Below are positions 26,386 through 51,878 of a DNA stretch of 64,000 bases, piece by piece (position 1 is the first letter of the stretch; every line of letters begins with the position of its first letter). The translations under genes and the position numbers were made by a program. This DNA comes from Candidatus Parvarchaeota archaeon (GTDB lineage Archaea; Nanobdellota; Nanobdellia; WJKC01): the NCBI GenBank assembly GCA_017608505.1, contig JAFCFT010000002.1, positions 15,299-79,298 of the forward strand. The letters are read 5' to 3'. The notes below the pieces were generated by a model. That model did not search any database. It was not told the origin of the DNA and saw only the letters and a program-made list of their open reading frames with translations.

Positions 26386-26397
26386 ACGCCCGGGCCG
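26386..26397. repeat. att-like core, distal copy (duplicate of the tRNA-Asp 3' end)
   Basis: A 12-nt GC-rich match to 51867-51878 in an AT-rich intergenic region. Confidence 0.5.
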
Positions 26398-26677
26398 CGC
26401 GTTAGTACAGTTGGTCATACCGCCCGGTCGTTACTTCAACTGGATAATGAATAATACGCAGTACTGATTTATAAATTCCTTTAAAACTTTTTTAGGGATA
26501 GACGCCCTAACTTTTCTCAAGCTCTTCAATGCACTTTTTCAAGTAATTAATTATTGCCTGTTTTTCTGGGCTGACTTTTTTAGGCTTTATGTTTTTGGTC
26601 AGTTCTCGGTACCAATCAGGCAGTTGTGATAAAGTTTCATTCATTAGAGTAATTATTTTGAGAAGTTGTATTTAAAG

Positions 26678-29536
26678 TTAGGATAGCTTTATACCCATAT
26701 TTCTTGCTGTTAAATCAACTGCCATTCTATTGATATCTTCATTCATCGCCATGAATTTGCTGATTAAATTTGGGTTTTTGTCTAATAAGAAATCCATAAA
26801 TTTTTCTGTTAATCTTTTTAGAAGCCCTTTTTTAAATACCATTCCTAAATCTTTATCTTTGTTACCTTTAATCATTGTTGTAACAAATTCATCATGGGTT
26901 ACATTTTCAATATATTCTTCTATTAATCCTTTTTCATCATCAGATAATGATGATTCAAATCTTAAGTTAATTGCTTCAACAACTTCTTTAACAGTTACAT
27001 ATTCTATTTCTCTTTTTTTACCCGCACTAATTATTTCTTTTTCTTTTGGTTTTTCCTTTTTAACTTCTTTTATTTTATATTTAGTTACATAAATTTTTTC
27101 TAGTTCTTTATCAAGCATTCTAAGTTTACCAAAAGGGCTTAAATAATTAGCCATATAATACGAAAACCTAGCAAAGTTTCTTAAGTCTTTATCTCTGATT
27201 ACGAATAAATTGTTTAAGAAGTTAAATGTATTATTATACTTCACTAATAAGCCTCTGAATTCTCTTCTTTTCTTAACTTCATATTTATGCAATCTCTTTT
27301 CTATATTTTGCGCAATTTTTTCAAAATAGAGATTAGTTTCATTATTAAGTATCCCTATATTAAAATCGTCTACGTCTTTTTTAGTAAAAACATTCCAATT
27401 AATTAAATCAATATATATTTTACTTAGTTCTTTAGTGTCTAATCCTGTTCTATCAATAACTGTTTTTTTGTATCTTCTGAATGCTTTTATAATTTCTTTG
27501 TACGAGTTCGTGAAATCAATTGTTAATGTGTCCCTTTTGTTTGGGAATACTCTGTTTAATCTGCTTATAGTTTGCACAGCATTAATTCCTGAAACACTTT
27601 TATCAAGAAACATTGTGTGTAATAATGGTTGATTAAATCCATATTGAAACTTGTTGGCCACTATTAAAAATCTGTAATTTTTTTTCTTAAATTCATCCTC
27701 AATTTTTCCTTTTATTTTATTTAAGTTTGCTTCAGTATATACTTTATCATCACCTTTTTTTAATTTAATACTACCTGTAAACGCCACTAAAGTTTTGTAC
27801 TCTAATCCTTGGTCTTGTAATTCTTTGTCTAATATTAGTTTATACTTAACTGCTGCTTTGCGACTGCTAGTTACTATCATTGCTTTGGCATAATTATCTT
27901 TTATTGCATTCTTAGTATGTTCTTCAAATATTTTGATTATGATTTTCACTTTAGCCTTTATTATATTTTCATCCTCGTAAGCTTTGGCTTTAATTTTTTT
28001 AATAACTGGCAATGGAGGGTATTCTTTACCTTCTCCTATTTTTTCTGATAACTTGTATAGTGTTTCGTAAGGAATAATATTATCAGATACATTGAGTATT
28101 TTACCCTCTTTTTCTGCTTGATCCATACTATAAACATCAAAGGGTTTACCAAACATTTGTATTGTTTTATCACTTGGGGTTGCAGTTAATGCAATAAAAA
28201 CCAAGTTTGGAAATTTTCTCTTAACTAATTCTGCACTTAACTCGTCTTGGAAGTTTTCTTCATAAGGTTCAAAATAACCTAACATGTTTTTGTGTAGTTT
28301 ACCTGTTTGTGATCTGTGCGCTTCATCAATTATTATACAAATCTTTTTACCTTTCTGTTCTGTTAGTAATTCTTTTAACTTTGTGACTGAGAATTTGTGT
28401 ATGGTGCTTACCACTACTTTTTTATTTTTGTTTAATGCTGTTGCTAATTCTTTCGTTGTTTCAACATAGGCTACTAAACCTTTTTGTGTTTCAACGTTTC
28501 TTATTTCATTTCCTAATTGTGTGTTAAGATTAATCCTATCTGTCAGTATTACTATTGAATCAAACAAAGGTTTATTATCGTAATGTATGTGTCTTAGGAA
28601 TCTTTGGAGTATTGCTATTGTGTAACTTTTACCGCTTCCTGCACTATGTTGTATTAAGTATCTTAAATCTAGTTTCTTAGTTTTCGAATAATTCTTTAAT
28701 ATATCTTCTCTAATTTTATTTACTGTTCTTCTCTGATGATATCGTGGGAAGAAAAAAGTAGTAACTTCTCTTCCATCTGGAAGTTTTACTTTTATGGTAT
28801 GCAAGTAATGTTCTATTATTTCTATTAATGATTCTGGTGTTAGTATTTCATTATACAAATATTCTATATTATACTCATTCTCTACTTGCGGGTTAATTAA
28901 GTCTTTGTTAAACCATACGAAGTCTTCAACACTATTACTAATGAATTCAGTGGCTATCTTAACATTTTTAGTGTCTGCTGCGATATGTAGTATTGGTTTC
29001 TTAAATATGTTCAAGCTTTTATCCCTGTCATCAATGTATTGTATTACTGCGTCATCAACTACTTGACCAGTTAATGGATTCTTTAATTCTATTGTGATTA
29101 AGGCAAAACCATTTAGGAATAAAACAATGTCTATTGATTCCATTGTTTTTCTGAAACAGAATTGTCTAACGTAACTGAAAATGTTTGATTCATAACGTTT
29201 TAATGTTTCAGGATTATAACTCGTCTCGGGTTTAAAATAAATTAACCTAATTTTAATATCATTGATTGTTATTCCATCTCTTAAGACCTCAAATAATTTC
29301 TTTTTATCTAATTCTTTACTAATCACTTTCTTAACTTCTTTAAGCCACTTATTGCCAAAAAATGATTTTAATTCTTTAACTTCTTCTGGTTGGGTTCTGG
29401 TTAAGAACTCCATTAATATATTATCGTCGATGTTAATACTTAAATCGATGTCATCAGTAACCCGCTTGCGATAACCATGGGCTTCTAATCTTTCACAAAA
29501 ATGAGTCTCAAACTTCTCTTCTTTCGGACCAGTCAC
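26678..29536 (-). CDS. hsdR: Type I restriction enzyme R subunit (HsdR)
   Basis: 952 aa with SF2 motifs 'HSAGSGKS' and 'IIDEAHRSQ', and an N-terminal nuclease region. It overlaps hsdS by 4 nt. Confidence 0.85.
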   Translation of the reverse strand: MTGPKEEKFETHFCERLEAHGYRKRVTDDIDLSINIDDNILMEFLTRTQPEEVKELKSFFGNKWLKEVKKVISKELDKKKLFEVLRDGITINDIKIRLIYFKPETSYNPETLKRYESNIFSYVRQFCFRKTMESIDIVLFLNGFALITIELKNPLTGQVVDDAVIQYIDDRDKSLNIFKKPILHIAADTKNVKIATEFISNSVEDFVWFNKDLINPQVENEYNIEYLYNEILTPESLIEIIEHYLHTIKVKLPDGREVTTFFFPRYHQRRTVNKIREDILKNYSKTKKLDLRYLIQHSAGSGKSYTIAILQRFLRHIHYDNKPLFDSIVILTDRINLNTQLGNEIRNVETQKGLVAYVETTKELATALNKNKKVVVSTIHKFSVTKLKELLTEQKGKKICIIIDEAHRSQTGKLHKNMLGYFEPYEENFQDELSAELVKRKFPNLVFIALTATPSDKTIQMFGKPFDVYSMDQAEKEGKILNVSDNIIPYETLYKLSEKIGEGKEYPPLPVIKKIKAKAYEDENIIKAKVKIIIKIFEEHTKNAIKDNYAKAMIVTSSRKAAVKYKLILDKELQDQGLEYKTLVAFTGSIKLKKGDDKVYTEANLNKIKGKIEDEFKKKNYRFLIVANKFQYGFNQPLLHTMFLDKSVSGINAVQTISRLNRVFPNKRDTLTIDFTNSYKEIIKAFRRYKKTVIDRTGLDTKELSKIYIDLINWNVFTKKDVDDFNIGILNNETNLYFEKIAQNIEKRLHKYEVKKRREFRGLLVKYNNTFNFLNNLFVIRDKDLRNFARFSYYMANYLSPFGKLRMLDKELEKIYVTKYKIKEVKKEKPKEKEIISAGKKREIEYVTVKEVVEAINLRFESSLSDDEKGLIEEYIENVTHDEFVTTMIKGNKDKDLGMVFKKGLLKRLTEKFMDFLLDKNPNLISKFMAMNEDINRMAVDLTARNMGIKLS

Positions 29537-30843
29537 GCTACCACCTTCATTTTACCAGTAACACAATCATTAATTAAAACCCTCTTATATTCTTCTAACC
29601 TTTTGATTTCATCCTCAATGATATCTATAGCACTCTTTATTTTCTCAGTAAAAGAATCCAAAAAAGCAACAATAGCTTCTTGTTCTTCTTTGTCCGGTAA
29701 TGGAAAATAAAAATTAACAAACGTTTTTTGGTACAAATGAGAAATTGTTGAACCTGTCTTAATATATTCAATAAAATTATTAAAAAGTTCTGAATTAAGA
29801 ACCCAGAACATAAACTTTGGCACGTAAATATTATTTTCAGGTCTTATAACAAAAACACCACTATTAAGAGTGGCTTTTCCGTAAAAACCTTCAATAAATG
29901 CTACTTTTCCAATACTACCATCTTTTGTAACTAAAACATCTTCATTTTGAATTTGTATATATGGATCCTGTAAATATCTTTCTTCATCAACGTGATGACA
30001 GGTTTCCCAATTTATTTTACCATTTTCAAAATTGGTTCCAGTTATTAAATAAGGCCCTTCATCTCTATATTCCTTAGATGTTAATCCTTGCCAACCTATT
30101 CTTGATTTAACATAAGATGTTGTTTTTATTCTTTTAATTTTAAACCTTTTAGCAATATGATTTAGCCATTTTATTCCACTGTCTTTCATTTCAACATTAG
30201 GGTTTAATCCTTTAGTGACTGCTTGATTAATAACTATTTTCTCATACTCTTTCAGTAATTCAACTTGTTTACGCTTATTATTAATCACTTTATCTAACTT
30301 ACTGGTCTTATCATCCAAAAAAGAAGCAATAGCCTCTTGCTCGTCTTTTGGTGGGAAAGGTATTTTAAAATTCTTAACAATATTTTCATTAATATGTCCC
30401 TGGGCCCCTCCAATTGTTTTTTTTAAAAAATAATCTTTTGAATTTAGCAATATGTAAAATAAGAATCTTGGAATAAAAGAATTATTAGGATAAAGTGCTG
30501 TAACTGATTGGTTAGCTGCAGAATCAAATTTTAAATAAGCAACATTGGCTCTAGTGGCGCCAGTTAGAGCAATTAATACAGAATTCCTTGGAAATAATTT
30601 AGCTGAACTTTCACTTAAACCTAACTCAGTAATAAAAATATCTGCTTCATATAAATCACAATTTTGAATTTTACCTGATGGTAACCAAGGAATGTTTCCA
30701 CCCCAATATTCTGATTTGGCTGTTGATGGAGTCCCCCCACTCGAAGTATTTGCAAAATTTTTAATTTTTCTTAATCTCCAATGTTTTGGTAAAGACTCGA
30801 CATATTCATAATCCACACATTTATACTCCTGATAAGTTCTCAT
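29533..30843 (-). CDS. hsdS: Type I RM specificity subunit (HsdS), two TRDs
   Basis: Duplicated conserved spacers 'PFPPKDEQEAIASFLD' and 'FPLPDKEEQEAIVAFLD'. Confidence 0.85.
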   Translation of the reverse strand: MRTYQEYKCVDYEYVESLPKHWRLRKIKNFANTSSGGTPSTAKSEYWGGNIPWLPSGKIQNCDLYEADIFITELGLSESSAKLFPRNSVLIALTGATRANVAYLKFDSAANQSVTALYPNNSFIPRFLFYILLNSKDYFLKKTIGGAQGHINENIVKNFKIPFPPKDEQEAIASFLDDKTSKLDKVINNKRKQVELLKEYEKIVINQAVTKGLNPNVEMKDSGIKWLNHIAKRFKIKRIKTTSYVKSRIGWQGLTSKEYRDEGPYLITGTNFENGKINWETCHHVDEERYLQDPYIQIQNEDVLVTKDGSIGKVAFIEGFYGKATLNSGVFVIRPENNIYVPKFMFWVLNSELFNNFIEYIKTGSTISHLYQKTFVNFYFPLPDKEEQEAIVAFLDSFTEKIKSAIDIIEDEIKRLEEYKRVLINDCVTGKMKVVA

Positions 30844-31805
30844 GTTTCTTCACTCCTTGTTAATTCGAAGTCAAATTCTTGTAATTTTAAAGCACATTCA
30901 ATAATATAATTGATACAAAAATCTAAATCTTCCTTATTAAAGGTTATTTCTGTTGATGGCATATGAAAAATTGGCTCAGGAGAACCAATAGCCCATACTG
31001 GTTTAGGGATAATTAATGAAAACTTAATGAATTTTCTATAATCTAAGCCAAAAGCAAGAATCTTAACGGCTTTTTGCATAGACTCAATAGATTCCTTTAC
31101 TTTATCAATAAACTCAGATAATCTATCAACATCAAATACTTGATTTTCATTGTTTAGATTAGGAATAAAATTATTTCTTATATTAAAACTATTCAACCAA
31201 GTCATATCTTTTCCAAAGAAAAAAGGTGACTCTCCAAACCTTGTTCTTTTTGATGACTCATAATCCTTTAATAAAAACTCAAAAGCCAAGGAAAGAGCTT
31301 TAATAGATTCATTCTTATTTGAAGAGAATTCACTTTTAGCTTTCTCTAAATAACTTCTAACTTTACTATTAAAAACCAAATTTATAAGAGAGATATCCTT
31401 AACATCAAGGTTATAAACATTTTTACATAATTCTTCAAAAATATTATTTGCAATAATTCTAGATTCTTGAACATCTGTTTTACTTGAAAATATTCCATGA
31501 TGCTTTAAATTAACTCTTTTTCTTTTTAATTTATCTAAACTTGGTCTTGAACTAATTTCAACTTTTGGAGGATTATCATTTATCCAATCATTTATTTTAT
31601 CAAAATATTGCATAAAACTAAGATTATTTGAGTTTATGTCCTTATCTTCTAAGACTAATAAAAATGCTAGTTCAAGAGCATCATGATAATGTAAAAGTGC
31701 CACTGAAGATAACGGTTCTGGTTTTTTGGATTCTTCATTTCCTTTTTCAATTAAGAATTTAGCAAAAGCCAATCTTTTAAGTATAATTTCTCGAGTTAAT
31801 GACAT
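30840..31805 (-). CDS. Unknown protein embedded in the Type I RM operon between hsdM and hsdS (possible HEPN-like toxin/abortive-infection component)
   Basis: 321 aa, all-alpha in appearance, translationally coupled (4-nt overlaps) with hsdS. It has an Rx4H-like 'RVNLKHH' segment. No ATPase motifs. Confidence 0.35.
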   Translation of the reverse strand: MSLTREIILKRLAFAKFLIEKGNEESKKPEPLSSVALLHYHDALELAFLLVLEDKDINSNNLSFMQYFDKINDWINDNPPKVEISSRPSLDKLKRKRVNLKHHGIFSSKTDVQESRIIANNIFEELCKNVYNLDVKDISLINLVFNSKVRSYLEKAKSEFSSNKNESIKALSLAFEFLLKDYESSKRTRFGESPFFFGKDMTWLNSFNIRNNFIPNLNNENQVFDVDRLSEFIDKVKESIESMQKAVKILAFGLDYRKFIKFSLIIPKPVWAIGSPEPIFHMPSTEITFNKEDLDFCINYIIECALKLQEFDFELTRSEET

Positions 31806-31821
31806 TTTTAATCCTCCATAA

Positions 31822-33582
31822 TCATTTTATTAGCCCTAATTCTTTTAGCAGTTTTTTATTTTCTTCTTCTAAGTCTCTAAATTCTTTGATTACTTCTTCT
31901 TGCGACCTTAAAGGTTTATACTTATAAAAGTATTGAGTGAAATTAATCTCGTAACCAACAACCTGTTTCTTAATCTTATATGGTTTTTCAACTTCACGCT
32001 TTAAATATTCGTTAATATCTTCTTTTAGTGGGACATACTCAGCGTCATTAATCTTAACAATTTGAGTGACCTCCTTTCGTTCACCATTAACTTTTTTCAC
32101 AACAGTTTCTTTCTTAGGATTGCCGTTTTCATCAACATCAGTAAGTTCAAGAAATACCTTAGTATAACCAAAATCCTCATTATCAAAAATCTTGGAATTA
32201 TCAGACTCCTTAAATTCCTTATAAATCTCAAAAATCTTAACAATTTGGTCATCAGAGATATACTTACGCTTATTACCAAGACTCTTCTTCATAGGCTCAT
32301 AAAAATTAACAGCATTAATGAGTTGTACCTTACCCCTCCTTCTAGGTTCTTTCCTATTACGGATTATCCATCTGTACGTGGCTATACCTGTGTTATAAAA
32401 TAAATCAGTAGGTAAAGCAATAATTGCATCAATCAGATCATTCTCCAATAAATACTTCCTAAAATTACTTTCACCACTACCAGCATCCCCAGTGAATAAA
32501 GGACTGCCATTAAAAACAATAGCAATACCACTGTCCCCATCACTAGGATTCTTAAGTTTAGATAACATGTGCATTAAGAACAAAGTAGCCCCATCAGACA
32601 CGCGAGGAAGCATGTCCTTAGGGAAACGACCACTAGCATCATCAAGAATAGCTTTTTTATCCTTCTTCCAAGTAACACCGAAAGGAGGATTAGACAACAT
32701 GAAATCAAACTTAGCATTAGGAAACTTATCATTAGTTAATGTATTGCCAAATTTAATATTATCAGACTCTTCACCCTTAATTAACATATCAGAAGCGCCT
32801 ATCGCCCAAGTCTCAGGTTGCTTTTCCTGACCATAAACAATCACTTTAGCCTTAGGATTAACTTCTTTAAGAATAAATTCTTTAGCAATCACTAGCATAC
32901 CCCCAGTACCACATGCAGGGTCATAAATCTCTTTAATCTCACCATCCTTAATCTTAGAATCATTAATCAAAAGTTTAACCATTAATTTAATAACTTCACG
33001 AGGAGTAAAATGTTGTCCTGCTTCCTCACCAGTCTGCTCTGAAAAACGCCTAATTAACTCCTCAAAGATGTAACCCATCTTCTCGTTACTAATAACTTGG
33101 GGAGACAAGTTTAACTCAGAATACTGCTTTAATAATGGATACAACAATTTATCCTTCTCTAACTTATTTAACTCTTTGAAAAGACCAAAGTATTCAATAA
33201 TCATTTTAATATTATCTGTAAAACCATTCAAGTAACTCTTAAAATTCTCTTTAATCTCACTAGTTTTTTCAGCGCAAAGTTTTTCGAAAGTAAACTTAGA
33301 TTTATTATCAAATCCGAGAGAGGTAATTAATTTGTTATGAATAAACTTCCTCTTTTCCGCGTCATCCATTTTAATATTTTTAAGTTTTTTTTCAATTTCT
33401 TTCCTTTTTTCTTCTAAAACACACTCAATCCTTCTAAGAACAACAAAAGGCAATATAATGTCTTGATACTGATGTTGCTTATAAGTATCTCTTAATATTT
33501 CAGCAGATTGCCAGATAAAATTTACTTCAGCACTTATATTAATATGGTCTGCTTTCATATTATAAAACATAACATACACCAT
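31822..33582 (-). CDS. hsdM: Type I RM N6-adenine DNA methyltransferase (HsdM)
   Basis: 'DPACGTGGML' (motif I) and 'LSNPPFG' (motif IV), 586 aa. Confidence 0.9.
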   Translation of the reverse strand: MVYVMFYNMKADHINISAEVNFIWQSAEILRDTYKQHQYQDIILPFVVLRRIECVLEEKRKEIEKKLKNIKMDDAEKRKFIHNKLITSLGFDNKSKFTFEKLCAEKTSEIKENFKSYLNGFTDNIKMIIEYFGLFKELNKLEKDKLLYPLLKQYSELNLSPQVISNEKMGYIFEELIRRFSEQTGEEAGQHFTPREVIKLMVKLLINDSKIKDGEIKEIYDPACGTGGMLVIAKEFILKEVNPKAKVIVYGQEKQPETWAIGASDMLIKGEESDNIKFGNTLTNDKFPNAKFDFMLSNPPFGVTWKKDKKAILDDASGRFPKDMLPRVSDGATLFLMHMLSKLKNPSDGDSGIAIVFNGSPLFTGDAGSGESNFRKYLLENDLIDAIIALPTDLFYNTGIATYRWIIRNRKEPRRRGKVQLINAVNFYEPMKKSLGNKRKYISDDQIVKIFEIYKEFKESDNSKIFDNEDFGYTKVFLELTDVDENGNPKKETVVKKVNGERKEVTQIVKINDAEYVPLKEDINEYLKREVEKPYKIKKQVVGYEINFTQYFYKYKPLRSQEEVIKEFRDLEEENKKLLKELGLIK

Positions 33583-33894: not shown

Positions 33895-34602
33895 TTATTC
33901 TGTAATATTGAGTGCTACAAGTAATTTACCTGCTGGTTTTAAGATTACCCTGGTGTTCCTTCCTTCTCTTTCCATTTCAATTAAACCACGCCGCTTTAAA
34001 GATTTAAGACTAGCATTAATTTTTTGTGGTTTATGAATAAAAGGCAACTCACCATATCTATCCTTAAAATTTTCACAATATACCCTTCTAAAATAAGTAC
34101 AATTTTCTACTTCACCATTAAATGAATTAAGAATCTTAAGAATATTCCATTGTACATTAGTTAAATCTGTTGCTTTAGGAATTTTAAACATTGGCAATTC
34201 ATTTACCAAATCCTTAGTTTTAGCATCCTTTAATATACGTTTATCAAGAACATAATAACCTGTTGCATTAATTAAAATTATAGCAATACTAGCTGCGGCA
34301 GCCATAATATTGGTGCCCATGGTTATATTAAAATAAAAATTAATATTGGAATTGTTTTTTAATTCAATATCTGCAGTTTTTTTTACTTTTATAATTAAAT
34401 CAGTTAATTCAAATGGATTAATAGTAATTGTAGAAACAGAATCACAAATAGCTAATTTAATAATCTTTTCTGCTTCTTTAGAAACATTCTTAGTGCCTTC
34501 AGAATCAATAAGGTAAACTTTATCTATATCCTCGTAGTGCTTTAAACCAGTAATAATTGGTTCAATTCCGCTTTTTCCAACATTAATAAAATGGATATTC
34601 AT
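33895..34602 (-). CDS. CARF-domain plus winged-helix transcriptional regulator (Csa3-like)
   Basis: The N-terminal Rossmann-like 'IHFINVG...VYLIDSEG...NITMGTN' parallels the Csa3 CARF 'DLTMGMR' ligand loop. The C-terminal wHTH is 'LKSLKRRGLIEMEREGRNTRVILKPAG'. Confidence 0.5.
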   Translation of the reverse strand: MNIHFINVGKSGIEPIITGLKHYEDIDKVYLIDSEGTKNVSKEAEKIIKLAICDSVSTITINPFELTDLIIKVKKTADIELKNNSNINFYFNITMGTNIMAAAASIAIILINATGYYVLDKRILKDAKTKDLVNELPMFKIPKATDLTNVQWNILKILNSFNGEVENCTYFRRVYCENFKDRYGELPFIHKPQKINASLKSLKRRGLIEMEREGRNTRVILKPAGKLLVALNITE

Positions 34603-34647: not shown

Positions 34648-35334
34648 CTATAAATATTTAATCATTAAATCCAATAATTCATCGAAAGCGTATAAAGATA
34701 ACAAAAAAATATTAAAGATTACTAAAAACCCTCCAGGACTTTTTTTATTAGTTATAAGATCAGTACTTGAATATCGTTTTTTTATTGGATCGTGATGTTT
34801 ATCTCTTTCATCAGATAAAAAATCAAAAATAAAAAAAAATCTTGGATTTACTGCATCGTATTTTTTTAAAGTAGAAAATAAATTCTTATCCAATTTTACC
34901 CCACTCATTATTATTCCAGGATTCTGTAATCGCCCAACAGTCTCCTTATACATATCTTTGTATTTACAAAAAATAGTAAAATTCTTCGCATAAATAGACA
35001 TTCTGTCACCCTTTTCTTTAGGATCTATATCTATATTTAACTTGTTCAATATTACTTTGAAAACTCTTTTAAAAACAGCATCATTCAATGCACTGACAAT
35101 ATCAACAAAATAAGCAGAATTATCACTACTAATAATCCTTTTTATATCATTCTTTTGATCAATTAAATATTCTATCGCTGCTTCTAATTCTTTTTTTTGA
35201 ATAGAAGTTAACCAAGAAATTTTTTCAAGTTTTTTAATAATGTCCTCTTTAACAAAGTCAATATTATCCAATACACCTTTTATTGATTTTTTTATTTCTT
35301 TAAGACTACAGTCACGACTACTCATTAAAATCAC
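34648..35334 (-). CDS. hypothetical protein with a C-terminal transmembrane helix
   Basis: 228 aa with a hydrophobic C-terminal 'GGFLVIFNIFLLSLYAF'. It overlaps the downstream Type IIG gene by 4 nt. Confidence 0.35.
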   Translation of the reverse strand: MILMSSRDCSLKEIKKSIKGVLDNIDFVKEDIIKKLEKISWLTSIQKKELEAAIEYLIDQKNDIKRIISSDNSAYFVDIVSALNDAVFKRVFKVILNKLNIDIDPKEKGDRMSIYAKNFTIFCKYKDMYKETVGRLQNPGIIMSGVKLDKNLFSTLKKYDAVNPRFFFIFDFLSDERDKHHDPIKKRYSSTDLITNKKSPGGFLVIFNIFLLSLYAFDELLDLMIKYL

Positions 35335-37397
35335 TTATATAAATTATCTAATTCTTTTTTTAGTAAAACTATTTGTGATTCTAACAAATCAATTTTATTT
35401 TGCAATTCTTTTGCCTTTAACATTTTTTCTTTTTGTTTATCAAAGCGTAGTAATGGAATCCTCAAATTTTTTAGTGTATCTATTGGTAAGTGCTTTATCA
35501 CTCCATAACTAAAATTCTCGATTTGTTTTTTAACATAATCGGTTTTTAATAATGAATGTAAATAATAAGGATTAATATCTTTTTTTGGTCTTAAAGCAAC
35601 AAGAGAACTCGAGTGAACTCCTCTATAATCTTCATTAAATATAGCGGTTTTACCTATAGTACCAGTAATTGAAAATAGTATGTCGCCTTTATTTAAATTA
35701 AATTTAAATTTTGAAGAATCGATATTGACTAAATCTTTATTAACAATCGTTCCTGCATATAAATTTAATATTCTAATATACTTTATTTTGCCCTTCCCAT
35801 AATCTTTTTTTGGAACGTGGATCCCAGGGTAGATTTCACATAATTCTTGCAATCTTACAATTTTAATATTATTCTTGCGATACGTTTCTTCAATTTTCTT
35901 TATATCATTCAAATAAGGACCAAATGACAATATATAATTATAACTTTTGATTTCGTTTATACATACTAATTTTCGTAACTTTCCTAAAATCAAAGGTTTA
36001 TCTTCTTCGAATTTTTTAATATACTCTACAATCCCTTCAAATTCCATTTTTAATTTTTCATTAGCAACATCTTTATTTGAGTAATCTTCTTTACAATCAA
36101 TCATCAAAATATCGTTTTTGGTCCTACAATTATCAATAATCATTATTGATGATTGAATATGCATTAATGGGGCCCAAATATTTATAGGCAAGTTTATAAT
36201 CGCTTTAATTGAGTATTCTTCTAATAAATATTTTCTGAAATGCTTATTTGTATTGTCAAATAAAAAACCATTGGGAACTATTACTATTAATCTACCTTTT
36301 GGATTTAATGATTTAAGTGCAACATAAATAAAAGCAGCTTCAACACTTTTAAATTTGGTTAAATCATTTAATTTATCCTTATTTGGCCTTAATCCAAATG
36401 GAGGATTCAAAAATATTACATCAAATTTTTCATGAATCTGGTCATTAAGAACATTTTTAATTTGTAACTCAACATCAATATTTAAGAGGTACTTTATTAA
36501 TTTTATAAAATAAATATTATTCGAATTTTTTTCAAAACCAGTTAATTTAAAATTGTTCAATAAAGCATTTTTTACTAAAACTTGACCTTTTTTGCAATTA
36601 AAATCTGCAAATGATCTAGAATCCTCTTTTATTAATCCCAAAATAAAGTCAACCAATATATTTGGAATATAAGATTCGTCAAATTTACTATTTATTAATT
36701 TGTAATCATATACTATATTTATTATTTTTTCCAATGTTTTTTTATCCAAACTAAGTATATTTAAACTTTTCATTAATAATTCCAAATCGTTTTCTTTGTT
36801 AGTAAAAAGTTTATTAATATTCAAATATTCGGGATCAATATTAAGTTCTCTTGATAACTTTTTTGATAACTCATTTATTTTATCTTTAAATTCATTTAAA
36901 TTTTTGTATTCAAATAAATTTTTAGACCTACCATATTTAATTAACGCCAATAATTTTATAATTATAACTGTACCATTTTCTCTATAATTCCTTAGGTAAT
37001 TAAATATTCTCCAAATTTTACTCGTAACATCAGTATCAAAAGACTCAAGTAATGGAATTTCAGGTACTTCACTAATTTTCTTATTTTTTTTCCTAAAATA
37101 GATAAAATTATCTCCGTTAGTTAATATTCCATAAGGAAAATTAGAATTTAACAACAATTCATTCAATTGAATTTTTGATAAACTACTATCAATCAACTTT
37201 TTAATTTCAATTAAAATATAAGGTTTTGAATCAACATAACAAACTAAATCAGCAATATATTTTACACCATTTTTAATAAAACAACAATTTTTCTCAAATA
37301 ACACATTAACGTCTTTATTAAATCCTGCTCTCAATTTTTCAATAACTTTATTAACAGTTTTTAATCTCCAATTTGGGCGATACTGATTTTCACTCAT
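35331..37397 (-). CDS. Single-chain Type IIG-like restriction-modification enzyme (PD-(D/E)xK nuclease + N6-adenine MTase + HsdS-like TRD)
   Basis: N-terminal 'DLVCYVDSKPYILIEIKK' (D...EIK), 'FLNPPFG' methyltransferase motif IV, and a C-terminal TRD with an HsdS-like conserved tail. 688 aa. Confidence 0.6.
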   Translation of the reverse strand: MSENQYRPNWRLKTVNKVIEKLRAGFNKDVNVLFEKNCCFIKNGVKYIADLVCYVDSKPYILIEIKKLIDSSLSKIQLNELLLNSNFPYGILTNGDNFIYFRKKNKKISEVPEIPLLESFDTDVTSKIWRIFNYLRNYRENGTVIIIKLLALIKYGRSKNLFEYKNLNEFKDKINELSKKLSRELNIDPEYLNINKLFTNKENDLELLMKSLNILSLDKKTLEKIINIVYDYKLINSKFDESYIPNILVDFILGLIKEDSRSFADFNCKKGQVLVKNALLNNFKLTGFEKNSNNIYFIKLIKYLLNIDVELQIKNVLNDQIHEKFDVIFLNPPFGLRPNKDKLNDLTKFKSVEAAFIYVALKSLNPKGRLIVIVPNGFLFDNTNKHFRKYLLEEYSIKAIINLPINIWAPLMHIQSSIMIIDNCRTKNDILMIDCKEDYSNKDVANEKLKMEFEGIVEYIKKFEEDKPLILGKLRKLVCINEIKSYNYILSFGPYLNDIKKIEETYRKNNIKIVRLQELCEIYPGIHVPKKDYGKGKIKYIRILNLYAGTIVNKDLVNIDSSKFKFNLNKGDILFSITGTIGKTAIFNEDYRGVHSSSLVALRPKKDINPYYLHSLLKTDYVKKQIENFSYGVIKHLPIDTLKNLRIPLLRFDKQKEKMLKAKELQNKIDLLESQIVLLKKELDNLYK

Positions 37398-40604: not shown

Positions 40605-41168
40605 TTATTCGTCTTGGCACTCTTTCACGCTCTTCCACACATGGCTTATGCTCATGCCAGAGACTCTTGCCAGGTCCCTAATGCTCACTCCTTGGTCACT
40701 ACACGCTAGATAAATGCACACGAGCGCCTTGGTCTTGTTCGTCTTGTTCACTAATTTTTTCTCAACTTCTTTTATCTTCTTTATTGCTTTTGACGCCTCG
40801 CTCTCCGCAAGCCCTAATTCGTAGCACAGCCTCGTGATGTAGAAGCTGGTGTCAACTTGTTTTCTGGGAAGGTCCACGTTCTGCTTGATAAAAGACTTGC
40901 ACCTAAGCAGGCGCTTCTTCTCAACGCCAGAAGCCTTAATGACTTCCTTTAATAGCAAAGGGTAGTTCAGGAGTTCGCTTACGACCAGCAGGCAGGCGTT
41001 CACAAGCTCTTTCCTGCTCCTGCCTTGTGTTAATTGTTTAAGCATCAACTGCTTGTACAACTTGATAGTGTTCTGGAATAGTCTTTCAGGCAGTCCTAAC
41101 TCATTGCACGTGCTGCGCAATTCCTCATAGGCAGGCATCAAGGACTTAATGAATTGCGAATACTCCAC
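40605..41168 (-). CDS. TFB-like protein, cyclin-fold core only (second paralog; GTG start)
   Basis: It aligns along the whole TFB core ('GRSRKELVNACLLVVSELLNYPLLLKEVIKASGVEKKRLLRCKSFI', 'RLCYELGLAESEASKAIKKIKE', 'GVSIRDLARVSGMSISHVWKSVKE'). 'CCTTTATATATTA' TATA-like box lies about 30 nt upstream. There is no room for a Zn-ribbon. Confidence 0.7.
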   Translation of the reverse strand: MEYSQFIKSLMPAYEELRSTCNELGLPERLFQNTIKLYKQLMLKQLTQGRSRKELVNACLLVVSELLNYPLLLKEVIKASGVEKKRLLRCKSFIKQNVDLPRKQVDTSFYITRLCYELGLAESEASKAIKKIKEVEKKLVNKTNKTKALVCIYLACSDQGVSIRDLARVSGMSISHVWKSVKECQDE

Positions 41169-44362: not shown

Positions 44363-45217
44363 CTAATCTTTATAGTGTTTTCTTATTTCTTCAAATTTAG
44401 CTAAAAGCGCATCCGCAAGCTCTTGTTTTTTAATTAAATATTTTGCCCATTTTCCTTTATAACTATCATTTATTCCGGATATAATTCTGTACATATTTCT
44501 ACTTTCATGCTTGACAATCGAGCCTTTTTTTGCAACTATCTTAGAAGGCACAAGAATGAGATAATCGTGAAGTTCTAATGTCTTAGGGTTAAAGAAAGCC
44601 CCGACAACATAATAATTATTGTGCGGGGTAAATGTTTTTTTATTAACCTGCATTATTAATAACTTTCCATGAAATAATTTAAAATTTCCTTTAACTTGCA
44701 AGAATATTGGATGAAACTCGCCGTTCTTAACGACAATTAAATCAATTCCTTCGATATCGCTAACAGGCTTGTACACATTCAGAAGCCCTTGCCCATGAAG
44801 CAGCAATAATTCCTTTATTCTATCTTCAACAATGTTCCCTTTAGCTAAAGAGCTTAATCCAGAAAGATCAAGCAGTTTTTCAGCAGCTTTTAATTCTTGT
44901 TCTTCAGTAATTATTTCTCTTTGCCTGAACTCGATTTTATACTTTCCATTGACTTTATAAAATATTATCTCATCTTTAGGTTTCATATTATGTTTCCTGT
45001 AAAATTTAGTAAGCCCATATATTCTGCGACGAACTGGATTATATAACAATTCTTCTTCTTTTCCATCGATAACAATCTTAATTCTTTGTTTCTCGCTAGG
45101 CATTAACTCTAAACCTCTGACAGGGATATTTAGAAAACCTAATCTTATCTCAACTTCTATAAGCTTCCTCACAAATTTATCCATAGAGTAAGATAATGTG
45201 TTATAGGCTATAAACAT
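44363..45217 (-). CDS. hypothetical protein (possible restriction-endonuclease-like fold)
   Basis: 284 aa. 'DIEGIDLIVVKNGEFHPIFLQVKG' resembles a D...(E/Q)xK core. Weak. Confidence 0.3.
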   Translation of the reverse strand: MFIAYNTLSYSMDKFVRKLIEVEIRLGFLNIPVRGLELMPSEKQRIKIVIDGKEEELLYNPVRRRIYGLTKFYRKHNMKPKDEIIFYKVNGKYKIEFRQREIITEEQELKAAEKLLDLSGLSSLAKGNIVEDRIKELLLLHGQGLLNVYKPVSDIEGIDLIVVKNGEFHPIFLQVKGNFKLFHGKLLIMQVNKKTFTPHNNYYVVGAFFNPKTLELHDYLILVPSKIVAKKGSIVKHESRNMYRIISGINDSYKGKWAKYLIKKQELADALLAKFEEIRKHYKD

Positions 45218-45425: not shown

Positions 45426-45686
45426 GTGGTGTCAGACATGGCTGACAACCACTTATTAAGCATTTTATCTAAGAAAGTTGAACTATTTAAGGCTTTGCGA
45501 AGCCGAATCTGGAACGAAATGGAGGAGTACATCAAGAAAGTCCTGGAGAACGATGGAGAACTAGGCAACGACAATTACTATGAAAGCATAAGCAGTTTAT
45601 TAACACTGGAGTGGAAAGTGAACAAACAGATAGCGCAACTGAAGAGGATAGCAGAGAGGTACGCAGTGCAGGGGGCGAGGGCATGA
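45426..45686 (+). CDS. hypothetical small protein
   Basis: 86 aa ORF downstream of a palindrome-rich region. It overlaps the next ORF. Confidence 0.3.
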   Translation: MVSDMADNHLLSILSKKVELFKALRSRIWNEMEEYIKKVLENDGELGNDNYYESISSLLTLEWKVNKQIAQLKRIAERYAVQGARA

Positions 45687-45967
45687 AAGCCCTCATCAAA
45701 GACGGCAAAGTAAATGGTAAGAAGATAATACGCGCCTGGGAGTCATTCTCAGGTATCTACTGGCTGGCAGTAGAGGAAGCATACAAGCAGGACAGCGTCA
45801 TCGACGGCAGAGTATACAAAGACGACAGGATATACTTCGGCCTCGTGACAGGACCAATTCCTGAGTGGGGTTACTTTTCAGAAAAGGAATTAGAGCTGAA
45901 CAAACCGCTAGTGTGGGAGATTCCAAAAAGAGCAGTGCGGTGGCTGAGCAAGGAAGTTACAGCGTAG
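45611..45967 (+). CDS. hypothetical protein
   Basis: 118 aa ORF, GC-richer than its surroundings. Confidence 0.3.
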   Translation: MESEQTDSATEEDSREVRSAGGEGMKALIKDGKVNGKKIIRAWESFSGIYWLAVEEAYKQDSVIDGRVYKDDRIYFGLVTGPIPEWGYFSEKELELNKPLVWEIPKRAVRWLSKEVTA

Positions 45968-46085: not shown

Positions 46086-46093
46086 TCGCCACT

Positions 46094-46353: not shown

Positions 46354-47433
46354 TTATTTCTTTTTCCTTTTCCTCCTGAAGAGGAAAAACATCATGTATG
46401 CTACTGTACTTAGCAGATATCCTATGCTATACATTTTTTGCCCGTAGAAGACATACCTCAGCGTTATCAGCAAGTAGCCGAGGCTGACTAAGTCGTACGT
46501 GCTGACAAGATTTATTTTCTTTAACTGCCTGCTCTTCAGCTCACTCTTGTACTCAGCCTTGTCTTTTAAGTCTCCCATCTTATGCGCGATTAACAAGTCC
46601 TCGCATGCATTCTTCAACTCTTCAGGGTTGCCGATTTTAGCCAGCTCATTCTCGTATTCAACCAGTCCAGAATTCTTAATGAGCTTGTGTATTAACTCGC
46701 TGGCTTCCTCATTAGTGAATCCCCTAAGCCTTACTTCAGCAGAAAAATTAATGCCTTGACTGCTTGTCCCTGCGCCAAGAATTGTAAGCCCGCTACGTTG
46801 CAGCAACTTGATTATCTTCTTGGTCTGCTTGGTGGCTTCTTCAACTTCGTCAATAATGACTATCAAGTCCTCGCTGGCCTTCCTTACTATGTCGTCAAGC
46901 AGCTCGAACATCCGCTTCCTCCTGCCCCTTGTAGTGACCAATGGAATACTCAAGTGCTGCGCCAGCTTCTCAGTGATGTTGCTTGCAGGCCTGGCGTTAA
47001 CAAGCACGGAGTTTTTTAGGTAGTCTTGTTGCAAGTGCTTTAATAGTGTTGTCTTGCCCATGCCAGACTCGCCAAGTATGAGAGTGCTTCTCTTTCTCTC
47101 CAAGTTATAGAGTACTTCCTCCACTATGTCCTTGCGCTGGATGTAGACCTCATCTTTATCAAGTATGAACTCTGTCTTAATCTCAGGCTTCAAGTCATTA
47201 AACTTTCCTAATAAGAAGCAGGCAATTAGTCTGCCCTTGTTGCTTAACGAGTAATAATCCCTATTCTTGACGACCAATCCATGCCTTGTGAACTGCTTGA
47301 TTATCCTGGCAGTCGTTTTGTAATTAACGCTTTTAATCTTCTTCATCTTTGCAGGCCTGTCATAAAGAGCTTCAAGGACAAGCAAGTGATTCTTGCTGTT
47401 ACAAGCTTTAAGCATTAAACTCTTCCAATCCAA
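46354..47433 (-). CDS. wHTH plus P-loop (AAA+-like) ATPase with a C-terminal membrane anchor
   Basis: Walker A 'GESGMGKTTL', Walker B 'LIVIIDEVEE', an N-terminal wHTH-like region and a C-terminal TM segment plus 'RRKRKKK'. Confidence 0.5.
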   Translation of the reverse strand: MDWKSLMLKACNSKNHLLVLEALYDRPAKMKKIKSVNYKTTARIIKQFTRHGLVVKNRDYYSLSNKGRLIACFLLGKFNDLKPEIKTEFILDKDEVYIQRKDIVEEVLYNLERKRSTLILGESGMGKTTLLKHLQQDYLKNSVLVNARPASNITEKLAQHLSIPLVTTRGRRKRMFELLDDIVRKASEDLIVIIDEVEEATKQTKKIIKLLQRSGLTILGAGTSSQGINFSAEVRLRGFTNEEASELIHKLIKNSGLVEYENELAKIGNPEELKNACEDLLIAHKMGDLKDKAEYKSELKSRQLKKINLVSTYDLVSLGYLLITLRYVFYGQKMYSIGYLLSTVAYMMFFLFRRKRKKK

Positions 47434-47483: not shown

Positions 47484-47963
47484 TCACGGAATGAGACTGT
47501 AAAGCAGTCCTCTGAAGAACAGAAGCAGTATAAAACCTGCAATGAAAATTACTGCCAACAATTTCTCTTTCTTGCTGCCTGTCTCTACCCCGCCCTCAAA
47601 AATGGTAAATGCATAGCCTGCGGGCGGGGCTAATTGAACACCTGAAGGCGTACCCATGTCTAAAATCAAGTGGCTTATGTAGCCAAGTGTTAAGCCGAAC
47701 AACAAGGGATTGTCGCTGAATATGAATCCGCTAATCACAAGGGCTAGCGCGACATACACGCTGTGAGTTACTGACCTGTGGCCAACAGTATTGTATAACT
47801 GCCTGCTGATACGAGGGAACAACCTGCCAATGAAGCTGAACGGATAGTCAATGTCAGGCAGAACGGAACCCAAAATTACAAATAAAAGAGGCAAAAATTC
47901 GAAAGGCACGCCCAGCAATCCTGAGAAAAACAAGCCGAAAGCAATATGAGTGTAAAATCGCAT
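47484..47963 (-). CDS. Membrane-bound metal-dependent hydrolase (DUF457/YdjM-like)
   Basis: 159 aa, multi-TM, with conserved His/Asp positions ('LPDIDYP', 'GHRSVTHS', 'SHLILD'). Confidence 0.45.
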   Translation of the reverse strand: MRFYTHIAFGLFFSGLLGVPFEFLPLLFVILGSVLPDIDYPFSFIGRLFPRISRQLYNTVGHRSVTHSVYVALALVISGFIFSDNPLLFGLTLGYISHLILDMGTPSGVQLAPPAGYAFTIFEGGVETGSKKEKLLAVIFIAGFILLLFFRGLLYSLIP

Positions 47964-48030
47964 GCCTTACTATTGAATAGAAGAAGTATTTAAAGTTGGA
48001 GTTGGATATAAATATATAGGGGATGTATAA

Positions 48031-49207: not shown

Positions 49208-49283
49208 AATCTTGATCATCTCGAAATAACTTATAATCTTTGTATTTCTTTTATATAATTCTTCTTCATATTATTAAGTTGAA

Positions 49284-49535: not shown

Positions 49536-49674
49536 AATCAACTTAAAGGCATTCAACAATTGCAAGGACTGTTTTCCATGCCCTAAGTGCCAGGCGCTGG
49601 AGTTAGAATTTAAAAGTGGGAAAATTGTATGTAAAAACTGTGATTATGACGCGACTGAGGTTTTTATTTTTTAA
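49528..49674 (+). CDS. second small zinc-ribbon protein (48 aa, TTG start, overlapping the previous stop)
   Basis: 'NNCKDCFPCPKCQALELEFKSGKIVCKNCDY'. It is below the 60-aa ORF-track cutoff and was found by manual translation. Confidence 0.25.
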   Translation: MSKINLKAFNNCKDCFPCPKCQALELEFKSGKIVCKNCDYDATEVFIF

Positions 49675-50437
49675 AAATTTTAATTCTATCAATTTTTTGT
49701 TCTATAAATGTTTTTAAGTTAGGTTTTTTATCAATTAATTTTATAATTTTTATCTCTGAAGTAGGAATTACAATAACATCCTTTGTTTTCTTTTCTTGAA
49801 CTTTTAAAAAAGAACCTCTCTCTAAAAATTCTATGAATCTTACTTCTAGATTTTTTTTGCTGCTGGTTTTTATGTATCCAGTAGCTGTTTGATAGTGCAA
49901 CGTGCTTAAATGAGCCCATAAGCATACTATCAATAAATTAAATATCAATAAGAAAATGATATTAATTGGCTGATAATTAATAACCAAACCATAATTTGCT
50001 AATATGAATAAATACCTAAGATCTCCAAATCTTGTTATGATTAACGATTTGATTGAATGGGTGCTTTCAAAATTTGTTATTCTTTTAGACATGGCCCGAG
50101 ATTCCTTTTCAATTAAAAAAAAGTATACAAATAAACCTATTAGATAAACAAATGATGGAATTAATGATAAATAACTTTCAACGTTTATCCATATAGATAT
50201 TAAATTTAAAAATAACCATAATAAAAATGATGGGATAAAAATCAATTCAGATATAAACATAAATCCTAAAAATATTTTAGATTCTTTTGAAGAGTTTTTA
50301 TATTGCCAATTATTTGACCCAATTATTGATCCAATAAAATAAAAAACACCTATAAATAGACTAATTGTCACTGTTAAAATAGCTGGCTGACTAATCAAAT
50401 AAGAAACTAACCCACTAATTAATTCTTCCAAAAACAC
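49664..50437 (-). CDS. multi-pass membrane protein
   Basis: 257 aa with 6-7 hydrophobic helices. Confidence 0.35.
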   Translation of the reverse strand: MFLEELISGLVSYLISQPAILTVTISLFIGVFYFIGSIIGSNNWQYKNSSKESKIFLGFMFISELIFIPSFLLWLFLNLISIWINVESYLSLIPSFVYLIGLFVYFFLIEKESRAMSKRITNFESTHSIKSLIITRFGDLRYLFILANYGLVINYQPINIIFLLIFNLLIVCLWAHLSTLHYQTATGYIKTSSKKNLEVRFIEFLERGSFLKVQEKKTKDVIVIPTSEIKIIKLIDKKPNLKTFIEQKIDRIKIFKK

Positions 50438-50454
50438 ATTAAAATAAATTTATC

Positions 50455-50614: not shown

Positions 50615-51784
50615 TTAGCGCCTCCTGAGTATTGCCTGGGCTTTTTGTTGCAACAGCTTCTTGACTTCAGGGTCCTTGATCAACTCGTTCAATAAGTAGT
50701 CTTTGTTGCGCTCTTCCTCGTCAATCTGCATTAATGTCTTGCGGTCAAGTATTAACCCGCAGTTATCGCAGTACTTGCTGGTTGGTTCATTGCTGTTCTT
50801 GCAGCGGGGGCAGGTCATCACTTTTAATGATTCATTGTCATCCTCTTCTCCAATCTGCACGCCATTAACTTTCAACAAGGCTTTGTCAACATCCCTGCCT
50901 GACAAGTGGATGTAAACGCTTGCCATCTTCGAACCCTGCACCCAGCCGAAGTACTCCTTCATCTGCGCCTCAGTCAAGTGATTACACAAGTGAGTAGCCC
51001 TAGCATGCCTAAAAGAATGCGGATTCACTCGCTTACTAATATTAGCTCTCCTAGCAATCCTAATAAGTTTAACCCTAATCATGCTGTAACTTAATTGCTT
51101 AGGCTCGTAACAAAGATTAACCCATAAAGGAGCATCAGGGTCATTCTTCAGTGGATGCTCATTCAACCAACGAGCCAAATAAGAAACGCTGGCTATAATC
51201 CTAACCCTTCGCTGACCAGTCTTCCCGCTAACTAATAACTTGGCCCCGTACTTATCAAACGCTACATGCTTCAATTTTAAGTTGCCAATCTCTCCAATCC
51301 TGCAACCACTCTCATACAAACAACTAACTAGCGCCTTATCCCTACTATTCTTAGCAGCTTCAATCATTTGCTTGACCTCTTCTTGTGTTAGTATCTCCTC
51401 TGGCATTCGCTTAGCATTCTTATAATTAAACTTAATCCACTTAACACAATCAGGCACCTCCTCACTCTCATGTAACCAAGTCACGAACTTCCTCAAAATA
51501 CGCTTATAAGTAATCTTAGTCCAACCAGTATAATCACGAGACTCAATCTCACCAACCAACTTAATATAATCCTCTTTTACTAACTCCTTGAAGTCACGAT
51601 CAACCATCTCACCCCACAACTTCAAGACTTGCAAGTAACGATCAATACGCGCCTTGCTCAAGCCATTAGCCTTCAAGTAATCAACAAACTTAACAAAGTA
51701 ACCCTTGTTAACTTCCAGGATGTCCGCTGCCATCAAGCGATTAAAACTGCCTTCGACTCGTTTATCATAATCATGGATGCCCAC
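50615..51784 (-). CDS. int: Tyrosine recombinase/integrase with a C-terminal zinc ribbon
   Basis: 'NPHSFRHARATHL', downstream 'MASVYIHL' (catalytic Tyr), 'CPRCKN...CDNCG'. It is adjacent to tRNA-Asp. Confidence 0.85.
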   Translation of the reverse strand: MGIHDYDKRVEGSFNRLMAADILEVNKGYFVKFVDYLKANGLSKARIDRYLQVLKLWGEMVDRDFKELVKEDYIKLVGEIESRDYTGWTKITYKRILRKFVTWLHESEEVPDCVKWIKFNYKNAKRMPEEILTQEEVKQMIEAAKNSRDKALVSCLYESGCRIGEIGNLKLKHVAFDKYGAKLLVSGKTGQRRVRIIASVSYLARWLNEHPLKNDPDAPLWVNLCYEPKQLSYSMIRVKLIRIARRANISKRVNPHSFRHARATHLCNHLTEAQMKEYFGWVQGSKMASVYIHLSGRDVDKALLKVNGVQIGEEDDNESLKVMTCPRCKNSNEPTSKYCDNCGLILDRKTLMQIDEEERNKDYLLNELIKDPEVKKLLQQKAQAILRRR

Positions 51785-51866
51785 AACCTATCACCATTAC
51801 ACTTCATGTATTATCCTGAAGAAGTATTTAAGGTTGGGGTGGTGGGCGTTGCCACCAACCCTCCCT

Positions 51867-51878
51867 ACGCCCGGGCCG
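51867..51878. repeat. att-like core, proximal copy (3' end of tRNA-Asp)
   Basis: Identical to 26386-26397. Confidence 0.5.

Follow-up and report, generated by a model that had tools for sequence, protein, structure and literature searches.

A putative 25.5-kb integrase-delimited element at the tRNA-Asp gene of a DPANN archaeon

The 64,000-nt stretch of Candidatus Parvarchaeota archaeon DNA analysed here (GenBank assembly GCA_017608505.1, contig JAFCFT010000002.1, positions 15,299 to 79,298; hereafter the window, in whose coordinates all positions are given) contains a single tRNA gene detectable by ARAGORN, tRNA-Asp(GTC), at 51867-51943 on the minus strand. The gene of a tyrosine integrase adjoins it, and a 12-bp sequence taken from its 3' end recurs 25.5 kb away, next to an HMGS-like gene. 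The segment between the two copies of this sequence (26386-51878) is considered here as a putative integrated element, and the features at its two ends, including the presumed attachment (att) cores, are as follows.

26386-26397, plus strand: distal att core (attL), a putatively displaced copy of the tRNA-Asp 3' end, ACGCCCGGGCCG, read directly from the sequence
26432-26448, plus strand: distal inner arm motif, TACTTCAACTGGATAAT, 34 nt inside the core
50615-51784, minus strand: intact tyrosine integrase of 389 aa (PF00589, E 5.6e-22; zinc-ribbon matches)
51810-51826, plus strand: proximal inner arm motif, ATTATCCTGAAGAAGTA, forming an inverted repeat with 26432-26448 and overlapping both the promoter and the leader of the integrase gene
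51867-51878, plus strand: proximal att core (attR), the final 11 nt of tRNA-Asp plus 1 nt
51868-51942, minus strand: intact tRNA-Asp(GTC), the presumed integration target (ARAGORN; full-length Rfam match RF00005, 59.6 bits, model positions 1-71 of 71)

Both strands of the window were searched for ACGCCCGGGCCG with up to one mismatch, and just two sites were found; both are on the plus strand and are thus direct repeats. The number of matches expected by chance was 0.04, and none of 100 dinucleotide-preserving shuffles gave two. Read on the tRNA strand, the 12-mer consists of the last 3 nt of the T-stem (CGG), the 3' half of the acceptor stem (CCCGGGC), the discriminator (G) and 1 nt beyond (T), and 11 of its 12 nt therefore lie within tRNA-Asp. 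The match cannot be extended, and a longer repeat of the tRNA region is absent from the window. Between 26.4 and 51.9 kb there is no further copy of the core with two or fewer mismatches, the nearest having three and lying on the opposite strand. The far copy precedes the HMGS-like start codon by 82 nt and is situated in an AT-rich spacer of 373 nt between the HMGS-like gene (24943-26304, minus strand) and hsdR (26678-29536). At the other end, the tRNA and the integrase gene share a strand, and 83 nt separate the 3' end of the former from the start of the latter. An earlier interpretation made without database searches (the sequence-only reading) had described the 12-mer as the 3' end of tRNA-Asp repeated 25.5 kb away, the far copy as lying in AT-rich intergenic DNA beside the HMGS-like gene, and the integrase as adjoining an intact tRNA; all three descriptions held. 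The same reading had named the 12-mer being a common motif as one way in which it could fail, and with two sites in the window this was not the case.

In the integrase, a SAM-like N-terminal region is followed by a PF00589 catalytic domain, and a zinc ribbon of the form CxxC...CxxC makes up the C-terminal part. In an alignment of 32 family sequences, R148, K188, H256, R259, W281 and Y291 and the four zinc-ribbon cysteines are invariant, and the R-K-H-R-W-Y set aligns with the catalytic motifs of XerA; the protein is accordingly a member of the tyrosine recombinase superfamily (PF00589/DNA_BRE_C). The best solved-structure match is XerA of P. abyssi (PDB 4a8e, E 2.9e-15), and the best NCBIfam model is likewise that of XerA; the fold family and the catalytic residues are shared, whereas the present protein is about 100 aa longer, possesses a zinc ribbon and adjoins a tRNA gene. 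Classification as the archaeal XerA itself, the dif resolvase, was rejected at 114.1 bits against the equivalog cutoff of 220 for NCBIfam NF040815. Unlike XerA, a chromosome-dimer resolvase whose chromosomal gene is single-copy and which acts at dif, members of the family are multi-copy in some genomes and adjacent to tRNAs. An SSV-type ('suicidal', type I) integrase was also rejected: the int gene is unsplit, the Pfam match is PF00589 and not Phage_integr_3 (PF16795), and no distal int fragment was found. The att core lies outside the open reading frame (ORF) and the 389-aa ORF is whole, which assigns the integrase to the non-partitioning ('pNOB8-type', type II) class. More than 3300 homologues were retrieved, mostly of about 390-400 aa and about 50% identical even across archaeal phyla, from DPANN archaea, Methanosarcinales, Methanoperedens, Thermoplasmatota, Nitrososphaeria, Bathyarchaeia and Asgard-related metagenome-assembled genomes. 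A literature search found no description of a zinc-ribbon archaeal integrase family, which is weak evidence that none has been published.

Base composition separates the segment from its surroundings, with a GC content of 0.326 inside and 0.367 outside. A strand-symmetric tetranucleotide distance was calculated for 3-kb sections against the flank background and scanned at a resolution of 1 kb. Every section inside 26-52 kb was distant from the flanks (z 2.6 to 21), whereas all flank sections remained between -1.8 and +2.2, and the rise and fall of the distance coincide with the two 12-mers at this resolution; the tetranucleotide map over 26.4-51.9 kb that the sequence-only reading had proposed as a check thus deviated throughout and stayed at baseline outside. 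The interior is a mosaic. The part from 26.4 to 40 kb is very AT-rich (GC 0.22-0.33), and the part from 40 to 48 kb has a GC of 0.31-0.43, near or above that of the host, with tetranucleotides still atypical, as they are in the whole of 40-52 kb, where GC resembles that of the host. Both flanks are core chromosome. The left flank encodes Kae1, EF-1α, EF-2, RpoA', RpoA'', a split RpoB, HIT, DUF2284, UPP synthase and HMGS-like proteins; the right flank carries genes of no assigned function, a GTPase gene and OapB/OapC. The best named matches of EF-2 are from Nanoarchaeia, Nanoarchaeota and Woesearchaeota (59-71% identity), and the host is therefore placed among DPANN/Nanoarchaeia-like archaea. 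In GCA_030615175.1, whose EF-2 is 85% identical, the order HIT-RpoH-RpoB-RpoA-EF-2 is kept, the compared stretch ending at the HIT gene.

The surroundings of related integrases were compared at loci drawn from GTDB genomes (80), metagenomes (80) and IMG/VR (20), each with flanks of 10 kb (individual loci are cited by L numbers). Of 145 loci, 59 have a T-loop motif on the integrase strand no more than 330 nt upstream of the gene, against 3-6 of 145-156 at control positions. ARAGORN predicted a same-strand tRNA upstream in 31 loci, covering at least 15 tRNA species, with a median distance of 70-75 nt from the tRNA 3' end to the start of int; this count is an underestimate because intron-bearing tRNAs, such as that of L087, are missed. 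The integrase of the closest relative, L085 (73% identity), has tRNA-Asp(GTC) 71 nt away, and that of L086 (56%) is also beside a tRNA. Upstream of the 52%-identical integrase of L087 (about 9690-9935), where ARAGORN reports no tRNA, there is a sequence that starts with GCCAGGG and ends with a T-arm and CCCTGGCG; judged by eye, it resembles a tRNA gene that contains long introns and measures about 240 nt.

Ten of these loci (L032, L034, L047, L049, L052, L057, L061, L073, L086 and L107), which involve different tRNAs, contain an exact repeat of 11-14 nt of the tRNA 3' end at 2.4-7.8 kb downstream. All ten repeats begin at base 2 or 3 of the T-stem 3' half and end at the discriminator or 1-2 bases past it, and the 12-mer of the window is in the same register. 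Such repeats numbered 14 in 392 kb downstream; the upstream side yielded 2 in 407 kb, and the reverse strands 2 in 798 kb. In a 10-mer scan of the family loci, the matches clustered at offsets 1-3. A core of 12 bp is therefore normal for this integrase family. Some relatives hold several copies of the core, namely six in L034 (6506, 9113, 9845, 16056, 16222 and 16404) and three each in L052 (9771, 15767 and 16705) and L057 (9864, 14732 and 16074), with similar flanking arms, and this points to elements with the same integrase family and tRNA that stand in tandem arrays or persist as decayed remnants. Restriction-modification (RM) systems, Cas4-like nucleases and a pair of AAA and YdjM genes also lie beside family integrases at other loci, and no accessory ORF is conserved beside int across the relatives compared.

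These results bear on whether the recurrence of the 12-mer could be coincidental, in which case the segment would be a fixed, non-mobile variable island beside the tRNA; its integrase would be resident or decaying, and its real boundaries would be found elsewhere. The repeat measures 12 bp only, is GC-rich and contains the palindrome CCCGGG, and the empty site was not observed, all of which would suit such an origin. It would nevertheless have to reconcile the chance expectation of 0.04, which already allows one mismatch and either strand, with the direct orientation, a register shared with ten independent family loci, a composition boundary at the repeat (1-kb resolution), an intact integrase and a motif near the far end that is described next. 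We regard coincidence as very improbable.

Each end of the segment bears a 17-nt motif inside the core. The proximal one, which reads TACTTCTTCAGGATAAT on the tRNA strand, is located 40-57 nt inside the tRNA-proximal core, and it forms an inverted repeat with the distal one in which 14 of 17 positions agree (z = 3.5, a score attained by 2 of 300 shuffles). A motif of the CTTCAGGATA type is conserved in the spacer between tRNA and int of L085 and L086 and is again inverted at the distal end of L086; the cores of L052, L057, L061 and L107 are flanked by inverted repeats as well, that of L061 being an imperfect palindrome of about 50 aligned positions. The inverted arm motifs thus tie the distal 12-mer to the integrase end. 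They are probably sites at which the integrase or accessory proteins bind. The proximal motif is partly overlaid by a second, promoter-like one, CCTTAAATACTTCTTC, which with up to one mismatch occurs at just three places, 40532-40547, 47980-47995 and 51818-51833, all on the minus strand and each directly upstream of a minus-strand gene: a Sta1-like winged helix-turn-helix (wHTH) gene, ydjM and the integrase gene, respectively. With up to three mismatches, 8 matches were obtained against 1.57 expected.

Taken together, direct repeats of which one is the 3' end of a tRNA bracket DNA of atypical composition that encodes an integrase. We consider it very likely that 26386-51878 is an integrase-delimited integrated element in a DPANN (Nanoarchaeia-like) chromosome; the tRNA-targeting integrative element bounded by the 12-mers that the sequence-only reading had proposed is thereby supported by composition, flanks, integrase, family anatomy and end motifs. 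In the mechanism that we propose, a circular element would have carried an attP whose 12-bp core was identical to the extreme 3' end of tRNA-Asp. Its own zinc-ribbon tyrosine integrase would have exchanged strands within this core by conservative site-specific recombination, leaving the int gene unpartitioned. The tRNA would have been restored at the integrase end (attR) by element-borne sequence, thereby displacing the original tRNA 3' end by 25.5 kb to a position 82 nt upstream of the HMGS-like gene (attL), and the element may still be mobile.

The empty site that corresponds to this mechanism can be reconstructed as attB = ...TATAACTGCATAAGTGG-ACGCCCGGGCCG-GGATTTGAACCCGGGTCC..., and the circular junction as attP = ...GCCACCAACCCTCCCT-ACGCCCGGGCCG-CGCGTTAGTACAGTTGG... 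The attB junction CATAAGTGGACGCCCGGGCCGG had zero exact matches in metagenome contigs, and the attP junction CCTCCCTACGCCCGGGCCGC had zero exact matches in IMG/VR. A scan of genome contigs with the HMGS-like protein found no relative, the host lineage being sparsely sampled; HMGS-like homologues of at least 39% identity were all on contigs shorter than 3 kb, the nearest being 46% identical. Directly upstream of distant HMGS-like genes there is a tRNA-Ala (L083) or a truncated divergent tRNA (L082), and not tRNA-Asp, an arrangement that agrees with the presumed ancestral one without proving it. A second strain was encountered in JGI sample 3300033150 (L001 and L190), with 99.6% DNA identity; over 7.1 kb, it differs by 10 mismatches and a single indel of 20 nt. 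Its two contigs end before both junctions, and a contig break 74 nt from the tRNA is uninformative because this assembly is fragmented everywhere.

Several points weigh against an integrated element with these limits. The repeat is short at 12 bp, and the inverted repeat of the arms is by itself moderately significant, being equalled by 2 of 300 shuffles. Neither an empty attB nor a circular attP junction was found in the metagenomes or IMG/VR, and the stretches of relatives that were compared do not extend across the site; the insertion, with its point of strand exchange, is accordingly something that we infer and did not observe. Replication or virion genes could be hidden among the about eleven ORFs of the element that lack an assignable function. 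Finally, the GC content changes sharply at about 40 kb and relatives carry several core copies, and the interior may for this reason be an accretion of more than one element.

The last point leads to a composite origin, in which two or more elements, of this or other families, integrated successively at tRNA-Asp. The current element would occupy about 40-52 kb, and 26.4-40 kb would be the remnant of an older one, its inner junction having decayed. This explanation, which overlaps in part with that of a single integrated element, accords with the GC step from 0.22-0.33 (27-40 kb) to 0.31-0.43 (40-48 kb), with the 2-6 core copies of L034, L052 and L057, and with the confinement of the promoter-like motif (40532, 47980 and 51818) to the proximal part; the AT-rich block would then consist of the RM, CARF, TFB-like and lipoprotein genes. 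The interior, however, contains no core copy closer than the opposite-strand match with three mismatches, and the distal arm motif at 26432-26448 pairs with the integrase-proximal one, a relation that connects the far end with the present integrase. A composite origin is therefore unlikely in our view, although it is the most credible of the alternatives considered.

Between its ends, the putative element carries the following genes.

26678-33582, minus strand: type I RM operon, with hsdR (26678-29536), hsdS (29533-30843), a 321-aa ORF (30840-31805) and hsdM (31822-33582)
33895-34602, minus strand: CARF-wHTH (Csa3-like) regulator (PADLOC CARF3, E 2.5e-37; Pfam HFX_2341_N, DUF6293_C and CARF_Card1)
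35331-37397, minus strand: fusion of nuclease-like, N6-methylase and specificity parts, type IIG-like, the second RM system (HSDR_N_2, N6_Mtase, Eco57I and Methylase_S)
37479-38093, minus strand: TFB/TFIIB-like protein 1, cyclin repeat only (PF00382, E 3.4e-6)
38576-40051, minus strand: secreted or lipoprotein-like protein of 491 aa (DUF4352, PF11611, E 4e-12)
40082-40552, minus strand: small wHTH protein (weak NCBIfam Sta1 match, E 4.5e-4; homologue in the L086 element, 35% identity by tblastn)
40605-41168, minus strand: TFB/TFIIB-like protein 2, two repeats (PF00382, E 4.8e-18) and a C-terminal helix-turn-helix
43068-44288, plus strand: Cas4-like PD-(D/E)XK nuclease (PF12705, E 9.8e-39; PADLOC Cas4, E 1.4e-11)
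44363-45217, minus strand: 284-aa protein (weak match to a Cas4-family PDB chain, E 0.035; D...QVK motif)
45611-45967, plus strand: small conserved element protein (homologues of 46-55% identity 3-4 kb downstream of integrases in L008 and L134)
46354-47433 and 47484-47963, minus strand: wHTH-AAA/STAND-like ATPase and YdjM-family membrane hydrolase (Pfam AAA_22, AAA_16, nSTAND and YdjM)
49664-50437, minus strand: 257-aa membrane protein adjoining the integrase, with 4 hydrophobic segments and no family match

Pfam and PADLOC bore out the whole gene list of the sequence-only reading, which comprised two RM systems, a Cas4-like nuclease, a CARF-wHTH regulator, TFB-like proteins, a wHTH-AAA protein and a repeat protein. 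The subunits of the type I operon match HSDR_N, ResIII and SWI2_SNF2 (hsdR), Methylase_S (hsdS), and N6_Mtase with HsdM_N (hsdM), and the fusion enzyme at 35331-37397 is also recognised by PADLOC as MTase_I and Specificity_I. The 321-aa ORF between hsdS and hsdM matches phrog_37995 (E 4e-60), a PHROG of no assigned function, and may serve the type I RM system as an accessory protein. The 491-aa protein has internal repeats of about 129 aa (direct repeats of 387 nt), and its N-terminal hydrophobic segment is followed by a cysteine. Homologues of the Cas4-like nuclease adjoin the integrase in L018, L028 and L036, and the 284-aa protein of the present element (44363-45217) is, by its motif, possibly a second PD-(D/E)XK nuclease. 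The AAA-YdjM pair occurs again in the L087 element (16350-18502), which adjoins the 52%-identical integrase. Linkage of the two genes is found in both of these unrelated elements of the integrase family, and the pair could be a two-gene defence or maintenance module. PDB sequence searches with four of the orphan ORFs gave nothing significant, and a search for origin-like iterons in the gap at 42.4-43.1 kb gave nothing convincing.

Genes for capsid, portal, terminase, VP3/VP4, conjugation and Cas1 were sought with Pfam (ORFs of at least 70 aa), PHROGs and tblastn, and none was detected. An integrative-conjugative element or casposon was thus rejected, no VirB4/VirD4, pilus, Cas1 or PolB domains having been found among these ORFs with Pfam. 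Where the sequence-only reading had left the choice between a provirus and an integrative plasmid or defence island, we lean towards the latter, that is, a cryptic integrated element or integrase-mobilised defence island; the provirus half of the choice is not favoured, solely on the ground that the searches turned up no virion genes.

A provirus of an undescribed archaeal virus, such as a distant pleolipovirus-like or other membrane virus with structural genes among the orphan ORFs, was weighed in this light. The best viral matches of the integrase are GacPV1 (40%) and ThalV2 (35%), followed by a tailed virus of Methanomicrobiales, and 20 predicted viral contigs of IMG/VR encode members of the integrase family, some at the contig edge. 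The products of the element also include small membrane proteins and an NTPase, besides the secreted 491-aa protein. However, comparison by tblastn of all element proteins with GacPV1, ThalV2 and the IMG/VR loci returned the integrase only, and scans of IMG/VR with three element proteins gave no close relatives. The 491-aa protein consists of DUF4352 repeats without a C-terminal anchor, unlike the VP4 fusogens, and defence and regulation take up more than half of the coding capacity. Such a provirus is improbable in our assessment.

The integrases of GacPV1 and ThalV2 are the closest among deposited viruses, the identities of 40% and 35% extending over 89-100% of the protein (PMC10919331; BK065156, BK065158). 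Both records start with a sequence resembling a tRNA 3' end, TAGCCCCGCGGG, and have the integrase as the first gene. These viruses are Geoglobus/Archaeoglobus pleolipoviruses of 13-16 kb with VP3, VP4 and Rep, none of which has a detectable homologue in the window. A provirus of the Pleolipoviridae was rejected, no VP3- or VP4-like genes having been found in sequence searches by tblastn, PHROG and Pfam.

In overall kind, the closest match is provided by the cryptic integrated elements of Thaumarchaeota. These use XerC/XerD-type integrases and tRNA targets, have att sites of 8-26 bp (median 17) and sizes of 2.6-98 kb, and lack virion, conjugation and casposon hallmark genes (Krupovic et al. 2019, PMC6563490). 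Their commonest cargo includes type I RM subunits and TFIIB homologues (PMC6563490), and cryptic integrated elements carrying such genes are also documented elsewhere (PMC8371274; PMC5861418). The integrase type, the short att, the RM genes and the TFIIB-like genes are common to those elements and the present one, which differs in its DPANN host, zinc-ribbon integrase, CARF-wHTH regulator, Cas4-like nucleases and AAA-YdjM pair. Archaeal att cores of 8 bp (Thaumarchaeota), 11 bp (Msmi-Pro1) and 13-14 bp (SNJ2) are on record (PMC8371274).

In SNJ2-type elements of haloarchaeal pleolipoviruses, the core measures 14 bp and coincides with the 3'-distal end of a tRNA gene, int is unsplit, and the arms on either side of the core are conserved; their integrases serve different kinds of mobile elements, are confined to haloarchaea and need Orf2 and Orf3, and in SNJ2 the att follows the int 3' end at a distance of about 48 bp (Wang et al. 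2018, PMC5861418). The short core at the tRNA 3' end (12 bp here, 11-14 bp in relatives) and the unsplit int are shared with this type, as are conserved arms beside the core and the use of one integrase type by mobile elements of different kinds. In the present element, by contrast, the tRNA and att are about 70-80 nt upstream of the int start, and no equivalents of Orf2/Orf3 were identified. Identity to the haloviral integrases that matched, those of BJ1, Humcor1 and HRTV-27, is about 30%. Membership of the SNJ2-type family was rejected on the upstream position of att, this identity to haloviral integrases other than SNJ2 Int, and the absence of conserved accessory ORFs. The kind of element is already known: it is an ordinary archaeal tRNA-integrating element, and this assignment is well supported.

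Two wider proposals follow, which we advance jointly as tentative and hold to be somewhat less probable than an even chance. The first is that the integrases compared here form an undescribed pan-archaeal zinc-ribbon family with a common rule of integration, whereby the tRNA may be situated about 70 nt upstream of int and strands may be exchanged in a core of 11-14 bp that, for any tRNA used, always reaches from the final 3-4 nt of the T-stem to the discriminator inclusive. The family would then be an integration module shared by pleolipoviruses, tailed viruses and defence islands. The second is that the element may have its own transcription programme, consisting of the two truncated TFB-like factors and the private motif before int, ydjM and the Sta1-like gene; the co-occurrence of CCTTAAATACTTCTTC with the two TFB-like genes hints at element-specific transcription control. 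The segment would represent a clean, bounded 25-kb defence island, mobilised by an integrase, in a small-genome DPANN-type archaeon, a group in which few integrated elements have been delimited. The rule has a practical form, in which a tRNA is sought about 70 nt upstream of int and then an 11-14-nt repeat of its extreme 3' end, and could delimit many archaeal elements with att sites too short for standard repeat finders.

In the left flank, two short ORFs of 80 and 82 aa (22051-22529) are similar to the N-terminal part of MFS transporters and look like fragments of a broken transporter; the same two ORFs are present in contig L190 of the variant strain. The HMGS-like protein of 453 aa is a near-orphan, with three homologues of at least 39% identity in 5.8 billion proteins. 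In L083 (507-2631), its gene again adjoins that of a UPP synthase, with the tRNA-Ala 52 nt upstream, and the protein may be a lineage-specific thiolase-fold enzyme tied to isoprenoid metabolism.

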